Of a DNA stretch of 64,000 nucleotides, positions 1 through 12,320 are shown one piece after another; position 1 is the stretch's first letter, and each line of letters begins with the position of its first letter. The notes under the pieces were generated by a model that was not told the DNA's origin, made no database searches, and saw only the letters and a list, made by a program, of their open reading frames with translations. Position numbers and translations under genes: made by a program. This stretch comes from an uncultured Thermoleophilia bacterium. GTDB taxonomy: Bacteria; Actinomycetota; Thermoleophilia; UBA2241. The stretch spans positions 72 to 64,071 of the forward strand of contig CAVPJG010000008.1 in assembly GCA_963705205.1 (NCBI GenBank). Reading direction: 5' to 3'.

Positions 1-351
1 GGGCGCTTCCGGCTCATGGAGGTCAACGCGCGCCACTGGAAGTGGCGCGGGCTGGCCGCGCGCTGCGGCGTCAACCTCTCCTACGCCGCCTACCGCGACG
101 CGATCGGCGACCCGTACATCGCCCGCCGTCAGCAGGATGGCGTCAAGTGGATCGTGGTCAACAAGGACGTGCCGCTGGCGCTCATGGAGATCGCCAGGCG
201 CCAGCGAAGCGCGCGCGAGTACGCACGCTCACTGCGCGGCACGCGCATGGACGGCCTGCACGCGTTCGATGACCCGCTGCGGCTGTTCAACGCCAGCGCC
301 GCGGTCAGGCAGGTGCTGACGCGCGCGCCGCGTTCGAGGGAGGACGTGTGA
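1..351 (+). CDS. ATP-grasp family protein, C-terminal fragment (5' end outside window)
   Basis: Frame is open from base 1 to TGA 349-351. ...RFRLMEVNARHWKW...VKWIVVNKDVPLALMEI resembles the C-terminal lobe of COG3919-type ATP-grasp ligases (from memory). Confidence 0.6.
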   Translation, partial: GRFRLMEVNARHWKWRGLAARCGVNLSYAAYRDAIGDPYIARRQQDGVKWIVVNKDVPLALMEIARRQRSAREYARSLRGTRMDGLHAFDDPLRLFNASAAVRQVLTRAPRSREDV

Positions 352-1857
352 GCAGCCGCGAGTCGCGGCGCCGGCGGCCGCGCGGGGGAGCGCGCTGGTG
401 ACCCTGCCCGAGCTGCAGGTGTAGGTCGGCGCGCCCGAGGCGTTCGCGCCGCGCGCCGAGTGGGTGCTCAGCACGCTGCTCGCGCCGCTGGGCCGCGGTG
501 CGACGTTCACTCGCGACCCAGCGCAGGCGAGCGGCGCCGCGCTGGCATACGCGGCCGCCCCGGTGGCCGGGTGCCGACGGTCCCCTGCGACGCCGGGGCG
601 ATGGAGCTGATCACCGCGGAGCGGCCGCTGCCGGCAGGCGCCTTCACCGGGCGAGGGAGTGGCGACGGCGCCGCCGTCGCCGCCTGGCCCGCCGGCCCCG
701 AGGCCGGCTTCGCCGCCTGTTCGACCTCGTCGCCTCCGCGTTCGTCCTGTCGCCTGCTGGGACGAGCGCACCACCGGCGAGCGCGACGAGTACGGCCGCC
801 TGCCGTTCGCCGCAGCATCTTCGCCGCCAATCCCGGACTGCGCATCGACGAGCCGGCTGTGGACCGCTACGCGGAGCTGCTGCGCGGCGCCCTGGCGCCG
901 CGCCTCGCGGAGCTCGGTCTCGAGGCGCTCCCGGCAACAGGAGCGTCTGGGGAGCGCGCGGCCGCTGCGCGATCGCGCTCACCCACGACCTCGACAACCT
1001 GTGGCGCTGGACACGGCGCGGCTTCGCCGCCGCCGGTACCGCACCGCCCGCGCGGCCCGGCACCTCGATGGCCGCGCCGTCGCCCGCGAACTGGGCGACG
1101 GCGTCGACTGGCTGGTCCGCCACCTGCCGCGCCGCACCGACCCCTTCTGGACGTCCCGCAGATCCTCTCCGGCGAGGACGTACATGGCGTCTCCTCGACC
1201 TCTTCGTCATCGCCCGGCACACGCACAAGCAGGACGGCAACCAGCCTGGTGCGTCCACCAAGCAGATCCCCCGAGGCGCTGCGCCTGGTCACGGAGGCTG
1301 GACGCAGGTGAGCCTCCACGGCAACGACGCCGACCGCCTCGCGCTCGCCGAGGTCGTGCGCAACCAGGACAACCTGCCGGGCGCTGGGTCGCGCCGTCAG
1401 CGGCATCCGCTACCACTACCTCGGGGCCCTCTACCGCGAGACGCTGCCGATGCTGGAGCAGGCCGGGTCCACCTACGACGCCGCGCTGGCGTTCGCCGAA
1501 CACGAGGGCTTTCGCTGCGGCTGCTCCTTCCCGTTCCGGCCGTACGCAGTGGCCGACGAGCGGCCCCTCGACCTCGTCGAGCTGCCGCTCGCGGTCATGG
1601 ACGGCACCCTGCAGGAGCCGCACTACCGCGGGCTGGCGGCGGCCGACGCCGAGCACGCCGCCGCCTCCATGCTCGCCCGCGCCCTGCGCAGCGGTGGAGC
1701 GGTCAGCCTGCTGTGGCACAACAACCGCTTCGACAAGCGCGTCTCTCGGGGCTACGACGCCGTGTACTGGCGCCTGATCGACCAGGCGCTGGCGCGCGGC
1801 GCCTGGTGCACCAGCGCCGCCGACGTGGTGGCCCGCTGGAAGGAGGCGACGGCGTGA
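348..1857 (+). pseudogene. polysaccharide deacetylase-like protein, many frame disruptions
   Basis: Protein-like blocks are scattered over all three + frames: AEWVLSTLLAPLGRG, LFDLVASAFVL, NPGLRIDEPAVDRYAELLRGALAPRL, IALTHDLDNLWRWTRRGF, VSLHGNDADRLALAEV. The C-terminal block MLEQAGSTYDAALAFAEHEGFRCGCSFPFRPY...LLWHNNRF is ORF 1450..1857. GTG 348 overlaps the upstream stop (GTGA). Confidence 0.5.
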
Positions 1858-2980
1858 CCCGCGTCCTCCACCTCAGCGTCGTCCACAAGCCGACGATCCG
1901 CGCATCTACGAGCGCGAGTGCCGGACGCTGGCCCAGGCCGGCTACGAAGTGATGTACATGGTCCCCGGGACGAGCCGGGCCGCGACGACGCCGGCGTCAT
2001 CCTGGCGCCGCTGCCGGAGCGCGGCCGAGCACACGTCCTGAGCTCCGTGGAGATCACCCGGGCTCTGCGCCTGCTCAAGCCCGACGTGCTGCACGTGCAC
2101 GACCCGGAGCTGCTCACGCTGTTCCCGGCGGTCAGGGCGTTCGTGCCACGGCTCGTCTACGACATGCACGAGTACGTGCCCGAGGCCGTCGCCGGCAAGC
2201 CCTACCTCCCGGCGAAGATCCGCCCGGCCGCCTCGCAGACCACGGCCGTCGCCCAGAGGAGCCTGGCGGCGCTGGGCTCGGGCGTCGTGGTCGTCACCGA
2301 CGACCAGCTGGCCGCGCTGGGCAGCGCGCCGAAGCTCCGTCTCGTGCTGCCCAACTACCCGCGGACCTCCCGCTTCGAGGGCGCCGAGCCGATCGCCAGC
2401 TCGCCGCCGACCCGCGCCTCAAGCTCATCTACGTCGGCAGCCTCTCGCGCGCCCGCGGCTGCACGATGATGCTGGACGTCATGGAGCGGTCGCGCCGGAC
2501 GAGGCCGTCCTGTACCTCGGCGGCACCTTCAACGACACGGCGCTGGAGCTGGAGGTCGGCGAGCGGCTGGCCCTGGGCCTCGCCGACCGCGTCAAGCTGC
2601 TCGGCCGCGTCCCGCCGCGAGAGCTGCCGCGCTACCTGGCGGCGGCCGATGTCGTCTGGGTGCCGTCGCAGCCCGACCGCCAGTACAGCCACCCGACCAT
2701 CCCCACGAAACTGCTCGAGGGCATGACGATGGGGCTCGCCGCGCTGGTCAGCGACATGCCGGGGCGTGGCGAGCTCGTGCGCCTCGAGGAGTGCGGCTCG
2801 CCGTGGAGCCGGGCGCCAACGGCCACCTGCGGGGGCTTCGGCGCCTCCTCGATGAACCGCCGGGCGCTGCCGGAGATGGGCGCTCGCGGCCGCCGCGCGG
2901 TCGAGCGCCGCTACAGCTGGGAAGCCGTGCAGGACGACCTCATCGACTTCTACGGCTCGCTCTGCGCCGGCCTCCCCTGA
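1854..2980 (+). pseudogene. GT4-family glycosyltransferase, about six frame disruptions
   Basis: GTG 1854 with AGGAGG at 1841, overlapping the upstream stop. GT4-like blocks VTRVLHLSVVHKP, YERECRTLAQAGYEV, LKPDVLHVHDPELL, LIYVGSLSRARG, VKLLGRVPPRELPRYLAAADVVWVPS, TKLLEGMTMGLA and RRYSWEAVQDDLIDFY lie in different frames. Shifts are near 1893, 1962, 2395, 2492, 2795 and 2860. Confidence 0.65.
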
Positions 2981-3001
2981 CGGCCGCCCGGCGCCGGACC
3001 C

Positions 3002-3831
3002 TCACCTGGGCTCGCCGAACAGGCACCTCTCCGCGTTCTTGGCGAAGAACAGCTCCCTGACCTGCGGCTTGACGGCGTCGGTCCACGCCTCCACCGCGGC
3101 GCCGAACTCCACCAGCGGGTAGTCGGTGCCGGACAGGCAGCGGTCCTTGAGGTAGGAGTTGACCGCCTGGATGGTCGCCTCGGGCAGGTACTTCGGCCAG
3201 AGGGCGCTGAACTCGAGGAAGATGTTCGGGTGCTTCTGCGCCACGGCGAGGGCGAGGACCCCGAAGCCGTTGCCGGCGTGCGAGATCACAGCTTGAGGCT
3301 CGGGAAGTTCATGGCGATCTCGTCCATGTACTGGGGGTCGCCGAGCCACATGCTCTGGAAGCGGTTGTAGTGCAGGCTGCCGTCGACGATCGCCACGAGG
3401 TTGTTGCTCTCGCAGTACGCGTAGATGGGGTAGAGCACGCTGGCGTTGGCCGGGATGCCCCAGATGAACGGGCTGACGTTGACCCCCAGGAAGCCGGCCT
3501 GACGGCACCGCTCCAGCTCCTCCAGATTGCGGCGCACGCCGTTCGAGGGATGGACGCCGGCGATGTAGTGAAAGGGGTCGTCGCCGCCGAGGCCGTCGCG
3601 GACCTCCATGATGTGGTCGTTGTCCGCGATGGACCCGCCGCACACGACGCCTCGCGACACGCCCTCACTCCGCGTCATGGCCACGAACTCCGCCATCTCG
3701 AGCGGCGTGAGTCTGGGCCGCATGTTGTAGAGCTCGATGTACTGGGAGAACTGTGGCGCCGGATCGTCGGGGTTCCAGGGACCGAGCATGTGCGGTGTCC
3801 GCAGGCGCACGCGGAAGTCGACGACGTCCAT
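3002..3831 (-). pseudogene. amidohydrolase-2 (TIM-barrel metal-dependent hydrolase) family, one frame break near 3285
   Basis: ORF 3286..3831 (MDVVDFRVRL...GVHPSNG...MNFPSLKL*) continues in ORF 3002..3643 as VISHAGNGFG...CLSGTDYPLVEF...FFAKNAERCLF. The junction AAGCTGTGATCTCGCAC needs a 1-nt correction. Confidence 0.6.
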
Positions 3832-3857
3832 AGGGGATCCTTTCGTCTCTCGGGCGG

Positions 3858-4996
3858 CTAGTTCGATCGTGGCAGTCCTTCCAGGACGAGTGAGGTGATG
3901 TCCCAGTGCGCGTTGCCCGTGACCGCGGGTTCCCCCCGCAGCTCCTCCGGGATGTAGAGATAGAACTGGCGCGGGCCGGCCTCTTGAACAGCCCGCCCCG
4001 CGTGAACAGCGAGGAGTCGATGAAGCCGGCGCGGCTCAGCCGGCGCGGCAGGAGGGTGGAGCGCCGCAGCGCCAGGCACTTGACGCGAGACAACCGGAGC
4101 TCCCAGCCCCACCGGGTCAGCGCCGCGAAGAGCTGGTCGAACAGCTCGGCGCGGGCGCCGTCCACGAGGACGTCGACCACGTGCAGGTCGCCCTCCTGGA
4201 CGAAGGCGATGGCATACCCCAGGAGCCCGCCGTCCCCGTGCATGGTCAGGTACCTGTGCTCGACGTGGGGGTCGTCGTTCACCCGCCACCGCAGGTAGCC
4301 GGCGCTGCGGTCGACGGTGACGCCGTACTGGCGGCGGTTCCGCTCCCAGAGGCCCGCGATCGCCTCCAGCGGAGCATCCGCTCGGTCGTGCACGGCCACC
4401 CGGTACCGGCTCGAGCGTTCGCGACGCACGTGGCTGTACGCCTGTAGAGCCCCGGCCAGCAGGGAGCCGAGCGCGGGGGCGAGCTTCTTCGCGCCCTTTG
4501 CCCTCAGGATCGAACCGATGTCCTCACGGAGCACGCCCGTCTTCAGCCAGAGTGTGTAGTTGGCCCAATCGTCGAACGCGACGTAGCCAAGCTTGCTGCG
4601 GACCCGTCCGACGGCACCGGCCGACACCGTGCCCGCCGTGGTGAAGAAGAAGCTGTACCGCTCCTTCTCCCGCTCGAAGCACTCGCGCTCGTGCGCGGAG
4701 TACAGGCCCGTGCCCCGGTGGTCGGGGTGGCTCATGCAGTTCTCCGTCTTGCCCGCGAGCACCGGACGGCCCCAAACGCTGAGCGGCGTGGGGATGAGGC
4801 TGTACTGGGCGACGAGCTGGTCACCTTCCTCGCGGTCGAGGTCGAAGACCAGGTTCATGCTCCCCTGGCCGGCCCACGTGTCGAGCCACTCCCAGGCGAA
4901 CTCCTCGGGCGTCCGGTCTCTGCCCGTGAGGGACAGGTAGAGGCGGTTGATCTGAGCCTCATCGCCCGGCTGATAGGCACGACTGAGTGTACGCAC
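3858..4996 (-). pseudogene. two-domain GNAT-type acetyltransferase, frame break near 3970
   Basis: MRTLSRAYQPGDEAQINRLYLSL...HRGTGLYSAHERECFE...GYAIAFVQEGDLHVVDVLV... lies within the long ORF 3665..6007. The C-terminus switches frame to ...QFYLYIPEELRGEPAVTGNAHWD (ORF 3858..4289). GTG 4996 is preferred over ATG 5095 because it leaves about 114 bp for divergent promoters. Confidence 0.5.
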
Positions 4997-5110
4997 TCGG
5001 GGAGACCTGCCTCGCCCGGACTGCTCGTCGAGCAGGCCGTCGCCACGGGCAGTATCCTCCAGCATCGCCTGAGCGCACAACCGGCCGGTCGTCATCCCCG
5101 AGCATGTAAG

Positions 5111-6352
5111 ATGTGGCGCATGGACGGAGCTCACGATCGCGCCGACGCGCGCGCCGGCACGGTCGGGGGCCGGCTCCTCAAGGTCCTCGTCGTGTCGCAC
5201 TTGTATCCGTGGCCCGAAGCCGAGCGCCACCTCTTCGTCCACCAGCAGGTCCTGGCGCTCAAGGAGCTCGGCGTCGAGTCGCGCGTGCTGTCCCCGACGC
5301 CGTGGGCGCCACGCGCCCTCTGGCGTAGCGAGCGCCAGCGGCGGCGCGGCCGCAAGCCGCGCCAAGCGGTCCGCGACGGCGTCGTCGCCGAGTACCCGCG
5401 TGTCCTGCAGCCGCCGCGGCACCTCCTCTTCGACCGCCTCGGCGACATCGCGTACCGCACCGTCCGCCGGCTGCCCTCGGTGCGGTCGGCCGGCTATGAC
5501 CTCGTGCACGCGCACCAGGCGCTGCCGGACGGCGCGCTGGCGCAGCGCCTCGCCGCCGACCTCGGCGTGCCGGCGGTGATCACCGTGCACGGCGCCGACG
5601 TCTACCAGCACCTCCGTATGGGCGGCGCCGTGGAACGGCGCGTTCGGCAGGTTCTCGGCGGCGCCGACTCGGTGATGGCGAACTCCAGCGTCGTCGCCCG
5701 CCTGCTCGCTGATGTGGTGGCGCCGGAGAGGCTGACGGTCGTCCTCAACGGTACCACCGGCCTGGACGCTCAGGTCGAGCCGGCGTCCGACTACCTCCCC
5801 GGCGAACCGCTCGTGCTCACCGTGGGGCAGCTGATCGAACGGAAGGGCACGGCCGACCTCATCACCGCCATGGGCAAGCTGCGGCGCAACGGGCGGCGCG
5901 TCCACCTCGCGATCGTCGGCGAAGGACCGTTGCGGCACGCACTCCAGGAGCAGGCCGCGGCTGAGGGCGTGACCGACGACGTCCACTTCGTCGGCCGCAT
6001 GGAGCACGCCAGGGTGCTCGCGATGATGGCGCGCGCGCAGCTCTTCGCCCTGCCGAGCTGGGACGAGGCCTTCGGGCTCGTCTACACGGAGGCCATGGCC
6101 CAGGGCACACCCGTGCTCGCCCTCCGGGGGGGAGGCCCCGAGGACTTCATCGACCCCGGCGTGAGCGGCGGCTGGCTGATCGCCGCGCGTGACCCCGACG
6201 CCATCGCGGGAGTCATCGCTCAGGTACTCGACGACCCGGACGGGGCGGCGGCGATCGGCGCGGCAGGTCGCGCCACCGCCCTCGGCCTCAGCTGGCGGCG
6301 CAACGCCCGCCTGACGCTCGACGTCTACGAACGCGTGCTCAAGGGCCGGTGA
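5111..6352 (+). CDS. GT4-family glycosyltransferase
   Basis: Real part of ORF 4691..6352: LKVLVVSHLYPWPE..., VITVHGADV, LTVGQLIERKG, LAIVGEGPL, LFALPSWDEAFGLVYTEAMAQGTPV (E-x7-E-type GT4 block). Start could be 5111 or 5120. Confidence 0.85.
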   Translation: MWRMDGAHDRADARAGTVGGRLLKVLVVSHLYPWPEAERHLFVHQQVLALKELGVESRVLSPTPWAPRALWRSERQRRRGRKPRQAVRDGVVAEYPRVLQPPRHLLFDRLGDIAYRTVRRLPSVRSAGYDLVHAHQALPDGALAQRLAADLGVPAVITVHGADVYQHLRMGGAVERRVRQVLGGADSVMANSSVVARLLADVVAPERLTVVLNGTTGLDAQVEPASDYLPGEPLVLTVGQLIERKGTADLITAMGKLRRNGRRVHLAIVGEGPLRHALQEQAAAEGVTDDVHFVGRMEHARVLAMMARAQLFALPSWDEAFGLVYTEAMAQGTPVLALRGGGPEDFIDPGVSGGWLIAARDPDAIAGVIAQVLDDPDGAAAIGAAGRATALGLSWRRNARLTLDVYERVLKGR

Positions 6353-6428
6353 GGCGGTCCGGGACGATTTGGTAGACTTCTACGGTTCGCTCTGCGCGGG
6401 GCCGGCCTGACGCCGCCCGCGCCGGCCG
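6351..6428 (+). repeat. relic copy of a glycosyltransferase 3' end plus its downstream flank (paralogous to 2921-3000)
   Basis: GAGGCGGTCCGGGACGATTTGGTAGACTTCTACGGTTCGCTCTGCGCGGGGCCGGCCTGA encodes EAVRDDLVDFYGSLCAGPA*. The end of the 1854..2980 gene encodes EAVQDDLIDFYGSLCAGLP*. The sequence after each stop is also similar. Confidence 0.7.
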
Positions 6429-6443
6429 CAAGGAGATCCCTTC

Positions 6444-7082
6444 GTGAGCATCGAACGCTTCGACAACGTGCTCGTCCTGGCGCCGCACACCGACGACGGT
6501 GAGTTCGGCTGCGGCGGCACCATGGCCCGCCTCATCGAGAACGGCGTCAAGGTCACCTACGCCGCCTTCAGCACCGCCGCAAAGAGCGTCCCCGAGGGGT
6601 TCCCCAAGGACGTGCTCAAGCACGAGGTCCGCGCCGCGACCGGCATCCTCGGCATCGCCGAGGCCGACCTCAAGGTGTACGACTTCGAGGTGCGCACCTT
6701 CCCGACCATGCGCCAGGACATCCTCGAGGAGATGATCGTCCTGCAGCGCGAGCTCGATCCGGATTGCGTGCTGCTGCCGGCGCTGATCGACCTGCACCAG
6801 GACCACAAGACCGTCGCCGAGGAGGGGCTGCGCGCCTTCAAGCGCACCACCGTGATGGCCTACGAGATCCCGTGGAACAACCTCAACTTCTCGCAGCAGG
6901 CCTACGTGCGGCTGGAGGAGCGCCACATCGAGAAGAAGGTCGCGGCGCTCTCCTGCTACGCCAGCCAGGGCCATCGCAACTACCTCAACGAGGACTACAT
7001 CCGCAACGTGGGGCTCACCCGCGGCATCAACATCGGCTGCCAGTACGCCGAGGTGTTCGAGGTCTACCGCTGGATCCTCTAG
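6444..7082 (+). CDS. PIG-L / LmbE-family N-acetylglucosaminyl deacetylase
   Basis: 212 aa with VLVLAPHTDDGEFGCGGTMARL (AHPDDE-like motif) and HQDH. GTG start. Confidence 0.9.
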   Translation: MSIERFDNVLVLAPHTDDGEFGCGGTMARLIENGVKVTYAAFSTAAKSVPEGFPKDVLKHEVRAATGILGIAEADLKVYDFEVRTFPTMRQDILEEMIVLQRELDPDCVLLPALIDLHQDHKTVAEEGLRAFKRTTVMAYEIPWNNLNFSQQAYVRLEERHIEKKVAALSCYASQGHRNYLNEDYIRNVGLTRGINIGCQYAEVFEVYRWIL

Positions 7083-7116
7083 CGCCCCACGCCGCCGCGA
7101 CCAGTCCGGAGTCCGC

Positions 7117-8160
7117 ATGACCCTGTCCCCGCTCAAGATCGTCCTCACCGCCGCCGGCTGCCCGGGCGCGAGCACGCTGATCGGGCAGCTCAAGGCGAAC
7201 GGCGAGCGCGAGATCCACATCCACGGCGTCGACATGCGGCCGGACGCCGTCGGCAGGTTCATGTGCGACGGCTTCAGCCTCGTTCCGCCGGGCGCCTCCC
7301 CCGAGTACATCCCGGGGCTCGCCGCTGTCGTCGAGCGCGAGCGCCCGGACCTGCTCTTCGTCCAGTCCTCGCACGAGATCGAGACGGTGGCGCGCCACCG
7401 CGACGTGTTCGAGACGCTCGGGACGCGCGTGCTCGCCGACGGCGTGCGCGGCATCGAGATCGCCGGCGACAAGGCGGTCATGCACGCCGCCTGCAGCGAG
7501 ATCCCGGTACCGCAGCCGGAGCTGCTCCGGCCGGCGAGCCTCGAGGAGTTCGTCGCCGGCGCCCGCGAGCTCGGCTACCCGGACGTGCCCGTCTGCTTCA
7601 AGCCACCGGTCGCCAAGGGCTCGCGCGGCTTCCGCATCCTCTCCGCGCACGTCGATCGCGTCCACGACCTTCTCTACGAGAAGCCGATCAACCGGTACAT
7701 GACGCTCGACGACTTCGTCGACCTCTTCACCGGCTACGAGCCGTTCCCCGAGCTCATGCTGATGGAGTACGTCGACGCGCCCGAGATCACCGTCGACCTC
7801 TTCGCCGACAAGGGAGAGGTGGTCTTCCACCAGACGCGCACCCGCGAGGAGTTCCTCACCGGCCTCGCGATGGCGTTCAAGACCATCGACCGGCCGCAGC
7901 TCGTGGAGCTCACGCGCAGGGTGGTCCGCCACCTCGGGCTGGACTACTACCAGAGCGTGCAGTGGATCGGCGGCCGGCTGCTCGAGATCAATCCGCGCGT
8001 CAGCACCTTCGTGTACCAAGAGGACTTCATCATCCCGTACCTTGGGATCAAGTACGCGCTGGGCGAGCTCGGCGCGAACGACGTGGCGGAGATCCAGGCA
8101 CGGGTGCGCACCAGCCGCAGGTCGGTGCGCTACTACGACCAGGTGTTCTGGGACGAGTAG
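7117..8160 (+). CDS. ATP-grasp domain ligase (CarB/PylC-like fold)
   Basis: 347 aa: KPPVAKGSRGFRIL, LMLMEYV, ITVDLF, LLEINPRVS. Typical ATP-grasp layout. Confidence 0.85.
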   Translation: MTLSPLKIVLTAAGCPGASTLIGQLKANGEREIHIHGVDMRPDAVGRFMCDGFSLVPPGASPEYIPGLAAVVERERPDLLFVQSSHEIETVARHRDVFETLGTRVLADGVRGIEIAGDKAVMHAACSEIPVPQPELLRPASLEEFVAGARELGYPDVPVCFKPPVAKGSRGFRILSAHVDRVHDLLYEKPINRYMTLDDFVDLFTGYEPFPELMLMEYVDAPEITVDLFADKGEVVFHQTRTREEFLTGLAMAFKTIDRPQLVELTRRVVRHLGLDYYQSVQWIGGRLLEINPRVSTFVYQEDFIIPYLGIKYALGELGANDVAEIQARVRTSRRSVRYYDQVFWDE

Positions 8161-9416
8161 TGCACATCCTCTTCCTGACGCACTACTTCACCCCCGAGAA
8201 CAACGCCCCCGCCGCGCGCGTGCACGGGATGGCGCGGGAGTGGGCACGCAGCGGGCACCGCGTCACGGTGCTGACCTGCGCGCCCAACGTCCCCGCCGGG
8301 GTCGTGTACGAGGGCTACGAGAACAAGCTGTACCAGGAAGAGTGGATCGACGGCATCCGCACGGTACGCGTCTGGACCTGGCTCGCGGCCAACAGGGGCC
8401 GCGTGCGTCGTGGCCTCAACTACGTCTCGTACCTGGCCGCGGCGGGCGCGGCCGGGCCGCTGCTGCGGCCGCGCGCCGACGTCGTCATCGCCACCACCCC
8501 GCAGTTCTTCGCCGGCTGGGCCGGCTGGCCGGTCGCGCGCGCCCACGGCGCGCCGTTCGTGCTCGAGGTCCGCGACATCTGGCCCGACTCCATCGTCGCC
8601 GTCGGCGCCCTCGGAGAGGGTCGTATCACCCGGACGCTGGGCGGGCTTGAGCGCGCCCTCTACGACAGCGCTGATCACATCGTCGCCGTCGGCGACGGCT
8701 ATCGCATGAACATGATCCGCAAAGGCGTCGGCCCCTCCCGCATCTCCGTGGTCACGAACGGCGTCGACACCGACCTGTTCGAGCCGCGCGAACCCGACCA
8801 GGAGCTCCGCGCGCGGCTGGGCTTCTCGCCCGGGACCTTCGTCGTCACCTTCGCCGGCACCATCGGCATGGCCAGCGGCCTCGAAGTGGCGCTCGGCGCG
8901 GCCCGCAGGCTCGAGGAGAAGGGCCGCGGCGACATCGCCTTCCTGCTCATCGGCGACGGCGCCGTGCGCGCCGGGCTGGAGGAGACTGCCCGCGCGCAGG
9001 ATCTCGCGAACGTGGTCTTCACCGGCCTTGTGCCGCGCGCCGACCTGCCGGCCTACCTCGCCAGCAGCGACGCCTGCCTCGTGCACTTCCGCAAGGACGA
9101 GCTCTTCGGGACGATCCTGCCGAGCAAGTTCTTCGAGGACGCCGCCATGGAGCGGCCGATCCTGCTCGGGTTCGAGGGCGACGCCCGGGCGATGCTGCAC
9201 GAGGCGGACTGCGGCATCGCCTTCGAGCCGTCCAAAGCCGAGGAGCTGGCGGCGGCGGCCGAACGCCTCGCCGCCGCGACGCCGCAGGAGCGGCGGCGGC
9301 TCGGCGAGAACGGCCGCCGCTACGTCCTCGAGCGCTTCGACCGCCGCAGGCTCGCGCACGACTACCTCGAGGTCCTCGAGCGCGTGCGCGCCGACTTCGG
9401 GCGCGGCCGCCGGTGA
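8160..9416 (+). CDS. GT4-family glycosyltransferase (WbuB-like)
   Basis: GTG 8160 overlaps the upstream TAG by 1 nt. VHILFLTHYFTPENNAPAARVHGMAREW..., VLEVRDIWPDS, FAGTIGMASGLE, LPSKFFEDAAMERPIL. Confidence 0.85.
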   Translation: MHILFLTHYFTPENNAPAARVHGMAREWARSGHRVTVLTCAPNVPAGVVYEGYENKLYQEEWIDGIRTVRVWTWLAANRGRVRRGLNYVSYLAAAGAAGPLLRPRADVVIATTPQFFAGWAGWPVARAHGAPFVLEVRDIWPDSIVAVGALGEGRITRTLGGLERALYDSADHIVAVGDGYRMNMIRKGVGPSRISVVTNGVDTDLFEPREPDQELRARLGFSPGTFVVTFAGTIGMASGLEVALGAARRLEEKGRGDIAFLLIGDGAVRAGLEETARAQDLANVVFTGLVPRADLPAYLASSDACLVHFRKDELFGTILPSKFFEDAAMERPILLGFEGDARAMLHEADCGIAFEPSKAEELAAAAERLAAATPQERRRLGENGRRYVLERFDRRRLAHDYLEVLERVRADFGRGRR

Positions 9417-9525
9417 GCACCCGGACCGGCTGCGCCGCAGGGCCGCGCGGGCCCGCAGCGCAACCCGGCCCAGCCGTCTGCGGTACACTGGCGCGAAGCA
9501 GCCGCCGCCTCCGGAGGAGGAGCGC

Positions 9526-10410
9526 ATGAGCACGGACGACAGCACCAGCATCGACGTCGGTTCCTGGTTCACCACGCTCGCCCGCAACTGGTGGGTGATC
9601 GTGGGGCTCGTCGTGCTCGGCATCATCGTCGGCGCGGTCGTCACCCTGGCACAACCCAAGGAGTACACGGCCACCGCCTCCGTGTTCATCGGGCAGACCA
9701 CCGACGCCCAGGGCAACCCCATGGCAGGCCTCAGCTCCAACGCCAAGGCCGCCGTGCAGCTGCTCGCCAGTCAGGCCGTGCTCAATGAAGCCGCCGATCG
9801 CGCCGGCATGGACATCTCCGCGAGCCGGCTGCGCAGAGAGACCACCGTCGAGACGCCGTCATCGACCGTCAAGACCACCACCTCCGTCGTCAACATCGTC
9901 GTCATCACGGTCACCGACACCGATCCCGAGCGCGCGGCGGCCGCCGCCAATGCGCTCGCGGATGTACTTCTCGAGCGCATCGACAGCGGCGTCGGCGAGA
10001 AGATCGCGGTGCTGGAAGAGCAGTTGGCCGCGGACAAGAAGTCCTACGAGGAGTCCCTGGCCCGCAGCGCCGCGGCGCAGAAGTCGATCGCCGACATCGC
10101 CGCGGGCGGCGGTTCCGCGAGCGAGAAGGCCGCGGCGTCGGTGGCCTACGCGGCGATCGTCCAGGCCGCCGCCACGCAGCAGGAGTCGCTGACCAGGGCC
10201 ATCCAGGACAGGGAGTTGCTCCTGCTCTCCGCGCAGAAGAACGAGCAGCCGCGGATGCTGCACGAGGCGGCGGTCCCCGACGAGCCGAGCGGGCCCAGCA
10301 TGACGGTGAACGTCGCCGTCGGCGCGCTCGCCGGACTGGTGATCGGGGTCATCGTCGCCTTCGCGCGCCGCGGGCTCGCGGAGCGGCGCGCCGCCCGCGT
10401 CGCGGCCTGA
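9526..10410 (+). CDS. Wzz-like polysaccharide chain-length determinant (no kinase domain)
   Basis: GGAGGAGGA lies 5 nt before ATG 9526. N-terminal TM WWVIVGLVVLGIIVGAVV, Ala/Glu-rich coiled middle region, C-terminal TM VAVGALAGLVIGVIVAF. Confidence 0.7.
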   Translation: MSTDDSTSIDVGSWFTTLARNWWVIVGLVVLGIIVGAVVTLAQPKEYTATASVFIGQTTDAQGNPMAGLSSNAKAAVQLLASQAVLNEAADRAGMDISASRLRRETTVETPSSTVKTTTSVVNIVVITVTDTDPERAAAAANALADVLLERIDSGVGEKIAVLEEQLAADKKSYEESLARSAAAQKSIADIAAGGGSASEKAAASVAYAAIVQAAATQQESLTRAIQDRELLLLSAQKNEQPRMLHEAAVPDEPSGPSMTVNVAVGALAGLVIGVIVAFARRGLAERRAARVAA

Positions 10411-10494
10411 CCGCCCGCGCGTCTCAGGCCCCCCGCGTCCATGGGCGCCGCCCGCGCGGCCGAGCCCCGGCCGGGATGACGGCGGAGCAGTCCG

Positions 10495-11367
10495 TCAGCG
10501 GTCGTACACGTCCGGGCGTCGATGGCTGAGTGACGGCACCTGCCGGCGCACCGCGTCGAGCCGGGCGAGGTCCAGATCGGCGACGCAGAGGCCGACGCCG
10601 TCGGCGAGCCGCGCCAGCACCTCGCCCCACGGGTCGACGATCATGCTGCGGCCGAAGCAGTCGCGGCCCGGCAGATGCTCGCCCACCTGGTCCGGGGCGA
10701 CGACGAAGCAGCCGTTCTCGATGGCCCGGGCGCGCAGCAGCACCTCCCAGTGCGCCGCTCCGGTGTACGCTGTGAACGCCGCCGGCACGCAGAGGATGCG
10801 CGCGCCGCGCAGAGCGAGAGAGCTGTACAGGCCTGGGAAGCGCAGGTCGTAGCAGATGGAGAGGCCGAGTCTCACCGGAGCGCCGTCGACGGTATCGATG
10901 TCGGCGGTGACCACTTCCCGACCGGGCACGACCTCCTCGGACTCCTGGTACTGGGCGGTCGCGGTAGTGACGTCGAAGAGGTGGATCTTGCGATACGCGG
11001 CGCGAAGGTCTCCGGTCGGGTCGAAGAGGGCGGACACGTTGGAGACGAGGCCGCCGGGCGCAGGCTCGTAGACGGACCCGGCGAGCAGCCAGATGCCGCG
11101 CCGGGCCGCCACCGCCGCGAGGGCGCGGTTGGACGGGCCGTCCGGCGCCTCCGCGGTGGCGACGATGCCCTCTCGGCGGCCCTTGAAGACCCACGTCTCC
11201 GGCAGGGCGACGAGGCGTGCGCCCCGGTCGGCTGCCGCCTCGACCAGATCGACGGCGTTGCGGACGTTGGCGGCGACGTCGTCGCGCGTGTTCATCTGCA
11301 CGCAGGCGACGCGCAGCACGCGGGCGGCCGGCGCGGCAGCGTTCGCGGCGTCCGGCCGGGCGCTCAC
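10495..11367 (-). CDS. carbon-nitrogen hydrolase (nitrilase superfamily, Nit/omega-amidase-like)
   Basis: 290 aa: [22 protein letters not shown] (catalytic Cys block), AFT...HWE. GTG start overlaps the upstream stop (GTGA). Confidence 0.85.
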
Positions 11368-12320
11368 TCGCAGGCCCCGCCGGAGCAGGCGATGAGCGAC
11401 AGCAGCTCGTAGGCGATGGTCGCCGCCATCGTCGCCGTCAGGTGGCTGCTGTCGAGCTCGGGGACGACCTCGACGACGTCTGCTCCGGCGAGGTCGAGGC
11501 CCCGGCAGCCGCGGATGAGAGCGAGCGCCTGCGCCGAGGTCGGTCCGCCGACCTCGGGTGTACCGACCGCCGGCGCAAAGCCCGGGTCGACGAAGTCGAC
11601 GTCGACGGTGATGAACGCCTTGGCGTCGCCGACGCCGTCGACGGCCGCGACGACCACACCGGTGCCGAGCTGCGCGAGGTCGTCCCAGGGGACCACGGTG
11701 AAGCCGAGCTCCCGCGCCTGCTCGTACTCGTCGGGCGAGTCGAGCCCGCCGCGCATCCCGAGGAGGGCCGAGCGCGACGCGTCGATCACACCCTCCTCGA
11801 GGGCGCGACGGATCACCGTGCTGTGGATGTGCCGCTCGCCGGCGCCCTCGTCGAGGCAGTCCGTGTGCGCGCCGAAGTGCAGCAGGGCGACCGGCCCGTG
11901 CTTCGCGGCGGCGGCGCGGAGCTCGGCCAAGGTGACCGTGTGGTCGCCGCCGATGCCCAGCGGCACCGCGCCGGCGCGGTGCACCTGGCCCAGCGTCTCT
12001 TCCATGGCGGCCAGGCTGCGGTCGGTGAAGCCGCCGGCGACCGCCCGCACGTCGCCCGCGTCGACCACGGAGAGTCGCTCGAACACGGCCACGCGCTGTG
12101 CGGGATTGTACGCCGGGTGGATGGTCAGGGACGCCTCGCGCACCGCGCGGGGGCCGAAACGGGCGCCCGTGCGCACGGCGAGGCCCGTGTCGAACGGGAG
12201 CCCGACCACGGCCACGTCCACGCCGTCGAACTGCGTGACGTGGGGCAGGCGCAGGAACGTGGTGACGCCGGCGATCCGCGGCGTGCGTGCGCCGCCGTCG
12301 GGGCCGTATCCCTTCATCAT
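11364..12320 (-). CDS. agmatinase / ureohydrolase (arginase family)
   Basis: GGAGG precedes ATGATG at 12320. GLPFDTG...GARFGPRAVR, GGDHTV, HFGAHTD, DVDFVDPGFAP, EVVP. These match arginase-family Mn ligand motifs. Confidence 0.85.
   Translation of the reverse strand: MMKGYGPDGGARTPRIAGVTTFLRLPHVTQFDGVDVAVVGLPFDTGLAVRTGARFGPRAVREASLTIHPAYNPAQRVAVFERLSVVDAGDVRAVAGGFTDRSLAAMEETLGQVHRAGAVPLGIGGDHTVTLAELRAAAAKHGPVALLHFGAHTDCLDEGAGERHIHSTVIRRALEEGVIDASRSALLGMRGGLDSPDEYEQARELGFTVVPWDDLAQLGTGVVVAAVDGVGDAKAFITVDVDFVDPGFAPAVGTPEVGGPTSAQALALIRGCRGLDLAGADVVEVVPELDSSHLTATMAATIAYELLSLIACSGGACE

Follow-up and report, generated by a model that had tools for sequence, protein, structure and literature searches.

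We analysed a 64,000-nt stretch of DNA from an uncultured Thermoleophilia bacterium, hereafter the window (C8:72-64071, on contig C8 of a 15-contig, 2.6-Mb metagenome-assembled genome (MAG) that is 76.6% complete). The subject of the analysis is a run of glycan genes near its start, in which a PIG-L/LmbE-type de-N-acetylase is paired with an ATP-grasp ligase, here called AG3. Raw lists of open reading frames are noisy because the window has a G+C content of ~70%; genes were called from third-position GC frame plots and Pfam matches. Both confirm four intact, co-directional and closely packed genes on the forward strand, as described in an earlier note based on the sequence. They encode a family 4 glycosyltransferase, GT4b (5111-6352; Glycos_transf_1, 128 bits; Glyco_transf_4, 62 bits), a 212-aa PIG-L/LmbE-type zinc de-N-acetylase (6444-7082; PF02585, 59.3 bits, cut-off 28.2), the 347-aa ligase AG3 (7117-8160; ATPgrasp_Ter PF15632, 54.4 bits, cut-off 29.1; PylC-like_N PF21360), and a WcaI-like glycosyltransferase, GT4d (8160-9416; NF007640, 177.7 bits, under the cut-off of 276). 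The 1-nt overlap reported for the last gene is indeed present (taG/Gtg at 8158-8162), and GT4d is translationally coupled to AG3. The Wzz-like gene noted at 9526 likewise stands: positions 9526-10410, on the forward strand, encode a Wzz-type polysaccharide co-polymerase (chain-length determinant) without a kinase domain (PF02706, 46.8 bits, plus GNVR). The gaps separating GT4b, PIG-L, AG3, GT4d and Wzz are, in this order, 91, 34, –1 and 109 nt. Wzz is the last gene of the locus, and convergent CN_hydrolase and agmatinase genes come next.

The beginning of the window overlaps a second contig, C14. Window positions 1-11386 (C8:1-11457) align to C14:15462-27015 over 11.5 kb at 96.8% identity with 113 gap openings; the two contigs are unmerged. 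When they are joined, the gene order reads Wzx, GT4a, Wzy, AG1, AG2, a VimE-like deacetylase, GT4c, a block of three genes (Amidohydro_2, GNAT-like and GT4b), PIG-L, AG3, GT4d and Wzz. The joined locus, from C14 8764 to window position 10410, thus holds four GT4s, three ATP-grasp ligases, one VimE-like deacetylase and one PIG-L. Its Wzx/Wzy/Wzz set is complete, with Polysacc_synt (PF01943, 67 bits) and Wzy_C (49.8 bits) matches on C14 and Wzz in the window. A relative's 2.1-Mb contig carries a co-directional Wzx-to-Wzz operon of the same layout, without the two minus-strand genes found here. The region makes up the 3' half of a Wzx/Wzy/Wzz-dependent locus for a surface polysaccharide, of the wall or the capsule; one family of uncultured Thermoleophilia has conserved this locus. 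This bears out the conservative reading given earlier, that these genes decorate a surface polysaccharide.

We scanned for conservation with one genome per species, which gave 76 loci, almost all from uncultured Thermoleophilia; 64 of them had enough flanking sequence to be assessed. PIG-L is present in 61 of the 64, in 55 of them with AG3 as the next gene downstream, and GT4d comes straight after AG3 in 46. Of the other components, Wzz is found in 59 of these loci, Wzy in 53, AG1/2 in 52 and the VimE-like gene in 51. The locus occupies the same chromosomal site, beside CN_hydrolase, agmatinase and RR-EAL genes, in 50/64. Within the class, AG3 was detected in 39 of 151 sampled genomes (absent from 112). 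It is common in the family of the window, occurs at ~42% identity in one other, and is lacking in four same-genus genomes that are 93-98% complete.

Both partners can be assigned to a superfamily, and each is distant from its characterised members. PIG-L keeps the metal-site motifs PHTDDGE and HQDH, which align with TT1542 and BshB-type structures; these motifs, with a PF02585 score above the gathering threshold, place it in the PIG-L/LmbE superfamily. It has its fold family and metal-site motifs in common with the PIG-L of glycosylphosphatidylinositol anchors, BshB, archaeal diacetylchitobiose deacetylase and TT1542. It differs from them in the weakness of the similarity (nearest solved relatives TT1542, archaeal diacetylchitobiose deacetylases and BshB1, best PDB E-value 1.4e-9; 63 bits versus a cut-off of 182.5 for BshB1) and in its linkage to an ATP-grasp gene. 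Since the solved relatives match at E 1e-9 or worse, we regard it as a subfamily of its own, with 66-96% identity across Thermoleophilia and 50-53% in three other phyla. For AG3, the fold and the catalytic residues both indicate the ATP-grasp superfamily: K162, the KGSRG loop, E217 and E290/N292/R294 are invariant in 16 homologues, and the structure model (predicted local distance difference test score, pLDDT, 80.5) gave 50 listed Foldseek matches that are all ATP-grasp enzymes, with E-values down to 4e-16. These matches are generic (14-19% identity) and comprise the uncharacterised 2pn1, biotin carboxylases, carbamoyl-phosphate synthetase (CPS), RizA and PurT/PurD. The PDB sequence and fold searches thus turned up generic ATP-grasp relatives and no hint of the substrate of AG3. 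AG3 is unrelated to AG1 and AG2 beyond the fold. Its subfamily is modest: among 1.84 billion representatives, E ≤ 1e-30 was reached by 167 clusters at 50% identity. No characterised member of the linked PIG-L/ATP-grasp module was found in Pfam, NCBIfam, PDB or the searchable literature, and literature searches for ATP-grasp enzymes with LmbE/PIG-L, and for DUF7033, returned nothing; papers that mention WbqC, and one on a Pseudomonas syringae ATP-grasp enzyme, gave no help. In one AG3 homologue (P0246, 611 aa), an ATP-grasp region of the AG3 type, 42% identical to the AG3 of the window, is naturally fused to a WbqC-like domain (PF08889, 182 bits). The WbqC-like family was named by Pfam after an O-antigen cluster gene.

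The adjacency of PIG-L and AG3 extends to at least five phyla. In Legionellales the order is PAPS reductase, ComA, His_Phos, PIG-L, AG3, Asn-synthase-like, GT4, ATP-grasp_3, Wzx and GT2; in Phycisphaerales it is PIG-L, AG3, Asn-synthase-like, GT4 and an ABC-2 exporter; and in Hadarchaeota it is PIG-L, AG3, GT2 and a Wzx-like gene. A proposed check of gene-neighbourhood conservation for PIG-L and ATP-grasp pairs thus came out in favour of the pair, which is kept in most of the Thermoleophilia loci and is adjacent again in these three groups and in Magnetococcales. Because the two genes are linked across phyla, mostly inside glycan loci, they are likely to perform consecutive steps. In the Legionellales MAG (L070:1677-5890), the pair is immediately preceded, on the same strand, by genes for a PAPS reductase, a phosphosulfolactate synthase (ComA) and a histidine phosphatase; one might speculate that sulfolactate is the acid ligated there.

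In this setting, we consider it reasonably probable that PIG-L de-N-acetylates a hexosamine of the surface glycan and that AG3 re-acylates it in an ATP-dependent reaction. The earlier note had raised the idea of a deacetylated amino sugar amide-linked by an ATP-grasp enzyme, and the position of the genes in a polysaccharide locus supports this as the most plausible predicted chemistry. Both enzymes should act in the cytoplasm, because neither sequence has a signal peptide and AG3 needs ATP. LmbE-type deacetylases act on N-acetylglucosamine (GlcNAc) glycosides at the cytoplasmic face. On this side of the membrane, a GT4 would add an N-acetylhexosamine to the growing lipid-linked repeat unit, and PIG-L would strip the N-acetyl group from this residue of the lipid-linked (or nucleotide-linked) precursor. 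AG3 would turn the carboxylate of an amino acid or small organic acid into an activated acyl phosphate and couple it to the sugar amine thus freed. Precedent for such a step comes from ATP-grasp domains that make amide bonds on capsule sugars, Cj1438C among them (PMC11800379). GT4d would extend the unit, Wzx would flip it, Wzy would polymerise it and Wzz would set the chain length. A second module made up of the VimE-like deacetylase and AG1/AG2 probably exchanges the acyl group of a further amino sugar in a similar way, or else lengthens the first substituent.

The closest functional parallel that we found is the Wbp/Vim pathway of Porphyromonas gingivalis and Tannerella forsythia. There, VimE is proposed to remove the 2-N-acetyl group, VimA (GNAT/FemAB-like) then adds Ser or Gly to the amine of the lipopolysaccharide (LPS) sugar, the AsnB-like WbpS amidates the uronate, and VimF is the glycosyltransferase, the product being the A-LPS linking sugar (PMC7468200). 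The pathway is a documented example of deacetylation followed by aminoacylation in a polysaccharide. The likeness lies in the sequence of events: the N-acetyl group of an LPS or polysaccharide amino sugar is removed, an amino acid is put in, and a glycosyltransferase incorporates the product. Furthermore, our locus has a VimE-like protein, and the distant PIG-L/AG3 loci have a WbpS-like Asn-synthase homologue and a GT4 directly downstream. The VimE-like protein is a DUF7033 protein whose L001 orthologue matches PF23019 and the VimE model NF053580 (UDP-2,3-diacetamido-2,3-dideoxy-glucuronate deacetylase; E 8.5e-35, 120.2 bits, profile positions 86-426 of 431). With this score falling short of the equivalog cut-off of 440 bits, the protein is, as judged by profile comparison, a relative of VimE and not an equivalog. 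The enzymes differ in other respects. The acyl group would be added here by ATP-grasp enzymes (AG3, AG1/AG2) but is added there by the GNAT/FemAB-type VimA, and no protein scanned in the locus matches the VimA-type model TIGR03019. The deacetylase partner of AG3 is of the PIG-L/LmbE and not the CE4 type, and we saw no Wbp genes in the locus, with neither a Wbp-type dehydrogenase nor a Wbp-type aminotransferase among its genes. Finally, the host of the window is probably a monoderm actinobacterium without a type IX secretion system (T9SS). On the best reading, then, the locus would match Wbp/Vim in function while using different enzyme families.

Other assignments of AG3 within the same polysaccharide have to be weighed against this predicted re-acylation. 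Cj1438C, the C-terminal TupA-like ATP-grasp amidoligase of Cj1438 from the Campylobacter jejuni HS:2 capsule, forms an amide bond on a capsule sugar, at C6 of glucuronic acid (PMC11800379). It resembles AG3 in being an ATP-grasp enzyme that is encoded in a surface-polysaccharide locus and makes an amide bond on a sugar residue, as predicted for AG3. By analogy, the two enzymes could be chemically uncoupled, with PIG-L only exposing a free, cationic amine and AG3 amidating a uronic acid with an amine or amino acid, a possibility we find doubtful. It draws some strength from the Asn-synthase-like amidotransferase directly after the pair in Legionellales and Phycisphaerales, since WbpS, of the same class, amidates the uronic acid in the Vim pathway, and from the nucleotide-sugar dehydrogenases that the genomes encode. 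However, the locus and its surroundings contain no sugar dehydrogenase gene, the closest ones being ~80-96 kb away or on other contigs, and the Pfam matches of AG3 are to ATPgrasp_Ter and PylC-like_N and not to a TupA-like family. Cj1438C also works on the C6 carboxylate of the sugar itself, which it activates and joins to an amine; the opposite polarity, sugar amine plus free carboxylate, is suggested for AG3 because it is paired with a de-N-acetylase. Deacetylase and AG3 stay adjacent across five phyla, once as a two-gene unit on its own, which speaks for successive reactions at one group. Alternatively, AG3 might activate bicarbonate, as biotin carboxylase, PurK and CPS do, and N-carboxylate the sugar amine or, with an amidotransferase, N-carbamoylate it. 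The closest NCBIfam model is in fact PRK12767 ('carbamoyl phosphate synthase-like protein', 61 bits, under the cut-off), biotin carboxylases and CPS are the best Foldseek matches after 2pn1, and in two distant phyla the gene after the pair encodes an amidotransferase of the Asn-synthase type. Yet any ATP-grasp protein would be expected to show identities of 14-19%, scores almost as high go to the amino-acid ligase RizA and to PurD/PurT, and the Thermoleophilia locus contains no amidotransferase; we therefore judge bicarbonate activation quite improbable.

A further alternative, suggested earlier, is that the GT4, PIG-L and ATP-grasp genes build a soluble molecule of the mycothiol or bacillithiol type (for example, Cys-GlcN-aglycone), with the ATP-grasp enzyme replacing MshC/BshC and the GNAT-like protein acting like MshD. 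The logic is the same as in mycothiol (MshA-D) and bacillithiol (BshA-C) synthesis: glycosyl transfer by a GT4, de-N-acetylation by a PIG-L/LmbE enzyme, and finally the joining of a carboxylate to the sugar amine at the expense of ATP. We compared the locus proteins, and 21 genomes of the genus and class (13 of high quality), with the NCBIfam equivalog models for Msh and Bsh enzymes. None of the GT4 and LmbE proteins reaches a cut-off, so that the suggested placement by hidden Markov models (HMMs) puts none of them among the Msh/Bsh enzymes. For MshA (TIGR03449, cut-off 462.5), GT4b (5111) scored 88.1 bits and GT4d (8160) 49 bits, and no match in the 21 genomes exceeded the cut-off. PIG-L does not match MshB (TIGR03445, cut-off 224), nor did the window's own genome, at 76.6% completeness, give an MshB match at E ≤ 0.001. 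MshC (TIGR03447, cut-off 485) was likewise not found above the cut-off in the 21 genomes, the best scores (~240-276 bits) being consistent with ordinary cysteinyl-tRNA synthetase (CysRS). The GNAT-like protein, in its broken and intact copies, has no NCBIfam match at E ≤ 0.001, MshD-type TIGR03448 included. For the bacillithiol models, GT4b reached 90.8 bits for BshA (TIGR03999, cut-off 273.7) and PIG-L 63.4 bits for BshB1 (TIGR04001, cut-off 182.5), and BshC (TIGR03998) had no match at E ≤ 0.001 in the 21 genomes while being detected in control genomes. EgtD is absent from the genus of the window and present in three of five other families sampled from the class.

The proposed search for mshA-D and bshA-C elsewhere in the genome therefore returned no MshB there and, in the 21 genomes, no MshA, MshC or BshC over the cut-off; together with the lack of EgtD in the genus, this counts for a thiol product, as does a Magnetococcales genome in which the pair stands by itself beside an ABC exporter. 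Against it, all Msh/Bsh scores are 3-5 fold under the cut-offs, the ligase comes from another superfamily, and the genes lie in mid-operon in a co-directional Wzx/Wzy/Wzz locus in ~60 genomes, where the expected product is a polymer substituent and not a soluble thiol. In addition, the GT4 beside PIG-L varies between genomes, and the GNAT-like gene is accessory (7/64 loci). A surface glycan fits better than a core redox cofactor because the locus is missing from the four same-genus genomes and from most of the class. HMM scores, gene context and phyletic pattern thus all speak against the four-enzyme analogy, and on these three grounds we rejected membership in thiol-cofactor synthesis. A mycothiol- or bacillithiol-like route is hardly credible here, and a new redox thiol from this locus is very unlikely.

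Several observations weigh against the predicted deacetylation and re-acylation. AG3 has no characterised close relative (best PDB sequence match E 3e-5, with generic Foldseek matches). In ~9/64 loci it has moved off PIG-L and is now beside Wzy or GT4b, and MGII archaea have it among metabolic genes and lack PIG-L there. In the Magnetococcales MAG (L083:10001-11721) the pair is isolated: its neighbours are a gene for a DUF418 membrane protein and a convergent ABC exporter, and no glycosyltransferase is encoded close by. The locus itself has no priming phosphoglycosyl transferase; Bac_transf genes lie on contigs C6 and C5, and in complete relatives on another contig, and a WecA/TagO-type primer was not searched for. 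All carriers of the locus are uncultured MAGs, and the chemistry is predicted from their genes.

The genes and the type of locus are ordinary. The replacement of an N-acetyl group by an amino acid on glycan amino sugars is chemically known from many O-antigen structures. To our knowledge, enzymes for this swap have been assigned for very few systems; among these is Wbp/Vim, where the transferase is of the GNAT/FemAB type. If the proposed chemistry is correct, PIG-L and the ATP-grasp ligase would constitute a second, independent enzymatic route to the N-acyl swap, kept in at least five phyla and ~60 Thermoleophilia genomes. It would also offer a testable function for an unstudied ATP-grasp subfamily and a first look at the wall or capsule glycan of abundant, uncultured soil actinobacteria. 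A bolder extension, which we put forward tentatively and rate as unlikely, is that PIG-L and AG3 form a self-contained 'N-acyl swap' module that in several phyla converts a GlcNAc-type residue to an N-aminoacyl hexosamine, with AG1/AG2 and the VimE-like protein extending or duplicating the substituent in Thermoleophilia. The result would be a peptide-decorated wall glycan made by ATP-grasp ligases and not by Mur/FemAB-type enzymes. In that case, proteins or cross-links could be attached through the free amino groups, just as T9SS cargo is attached to the Vim linking sugar.

The remaining genes of the locus in the window lie upstream of GT4b. Positions 1..351 (forward strand) hold the C-terminal end of the ATP-grasp protein AG2, cut by the contig end (tblastn, 74-91% identity to AG2 of relatives). 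AG2 is the second of the tandem paralogues AG1/AG2, which are 60% identical, and its intact copy at C14 14670-15884 has CPSase_L_D2 and ATPgrasp_Ter matches. The VimE-like sugar de-N-acetylase gene (351..1857, forward; DUF7033 plus a weak CE4 region), identified by translation, frame plot and tblastn, carries many single-base deletions in the window, which are assembly errors. GT4c follows (1854..2980, forward) with about six single-base deletions in the window. On the reverse strand lie an Amidohydro_2 gene (3002..3831; 276 aa when intact; PF04909, 110 bits on the C14 copy) and the gene for a GNAT-like protein of ~380-402 aa (3858..5065, start at 4996 or 5065; Acetyltransf_9), both of them accessory.

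Almost all genes upstream of position 5000 (the VimE-like deacetylase, GT4c, Amidohydro_2 and GNAT-like) are broken in the window. The differences between C8 and C14 are clustered at the head of C8 and the tail of C14, and the middle (~5000-7000 in C8 coordinates) is near-identical. Relative to C14, window positions 1-5000 contain 30 indels, nearly all of them single missing bases, among them a G missing at 3975, which breaks the GNAT-like gene, and a G missing at 3289, which breaks Amidohydro_2. Both genes are intact on C14, and a 412-aa GNAT-like product is on record from that contig (P0137). The frame break reported earlier in the GNAT-like gene is thus seen near 3975 and is not biological, because the overlapping C14 sequence has the G that is absent there and the gene is intact; to judge from this overlap, it is an assembly artefact of two unmerged, poorly polished contig ends. 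We considered whether the GNAT-like gene and its neighbours are pseudogenes and rejected this on account of the C14 overlap, the single-base losses and the errors in C14's own tail. Wherever a gene in window positions 1-5000 or in the final 5 kb of C14 looks like a pseudogene, this should be put down to assembly error. The genome's single CysRS-like gene (C10:58806-59821) is similarly divided between two overlapping frames that score ~125 bits each against the MshC/CysS model, probably through a further assembly indel.

The divergent GNAT-like gene of ~380 aa described beside the GT4 at 5111 does exist, with a marginal match: Acetyltransf_9, 27.5-28.1 bits (cut-off 25), at the N terminus only. 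By eye, both halves of the protein have an R-G-x-G-L-type motif, its AlphaFold model has a pLDDT of 43, and a PDB sequence search with it gave no match. The best NCBIfam matches of GT4b, its neighbour on the other side of the divergent junction, are EpsE/TuaC-like and all far under the cut-off, and in most relatives GT4b adjoins Wzy, not PIG-L. The gene upstream of PIG-L is GT4c in 44 of 61 loci and GT4b in 2. A repeat search found a 62-nt direct repeat whose reference copy is the 3' end of GT4c (2921..2982, forward) and whose second copy, a 76% identical relic of this end, lies between GT4b and PIG-L (6351..6412, forward). Because this relic precedes PIG-L, Amidohydro_2, GNAT-like and GT4b appear to form a 3.4-kb cassette inserted between GT4c and PIG-L; from the sequence, the block looks like an insertion. 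With the GNAT-like protein and GT4b belonging to the cassette, two of the four legs of the analogy with mycothiol synthesis are gone. In other genomes (L026, L048, L049, L053, L056, L064), the Amidohydro_2/GNAT-like pair is found at other positions and in other orientations within the locus.

Two further gene pairs border the glycan locus. Upstream of Wzx, C14 3884-6339 holds a DUF1574-like gene and, divided between two ORFs, an MBOAT gene. Both accompany the locus in several relatives, and they look like an AlgI/AlgJ-type pair that would O-acetylate this glycan. Downstream, the CN_hydrolase and agmatinase-family genes (window 10495-12320) overlap by 4 nt and flank the locus in the 50 of 64 relatives mentioned above. 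The best NCBIfam match of the CN_hydrolase is 'deaminated glutathione amidase' (204 bits, cut-off 500). The synteny is stable, and the two genes probably have nothing to do with the glycan.

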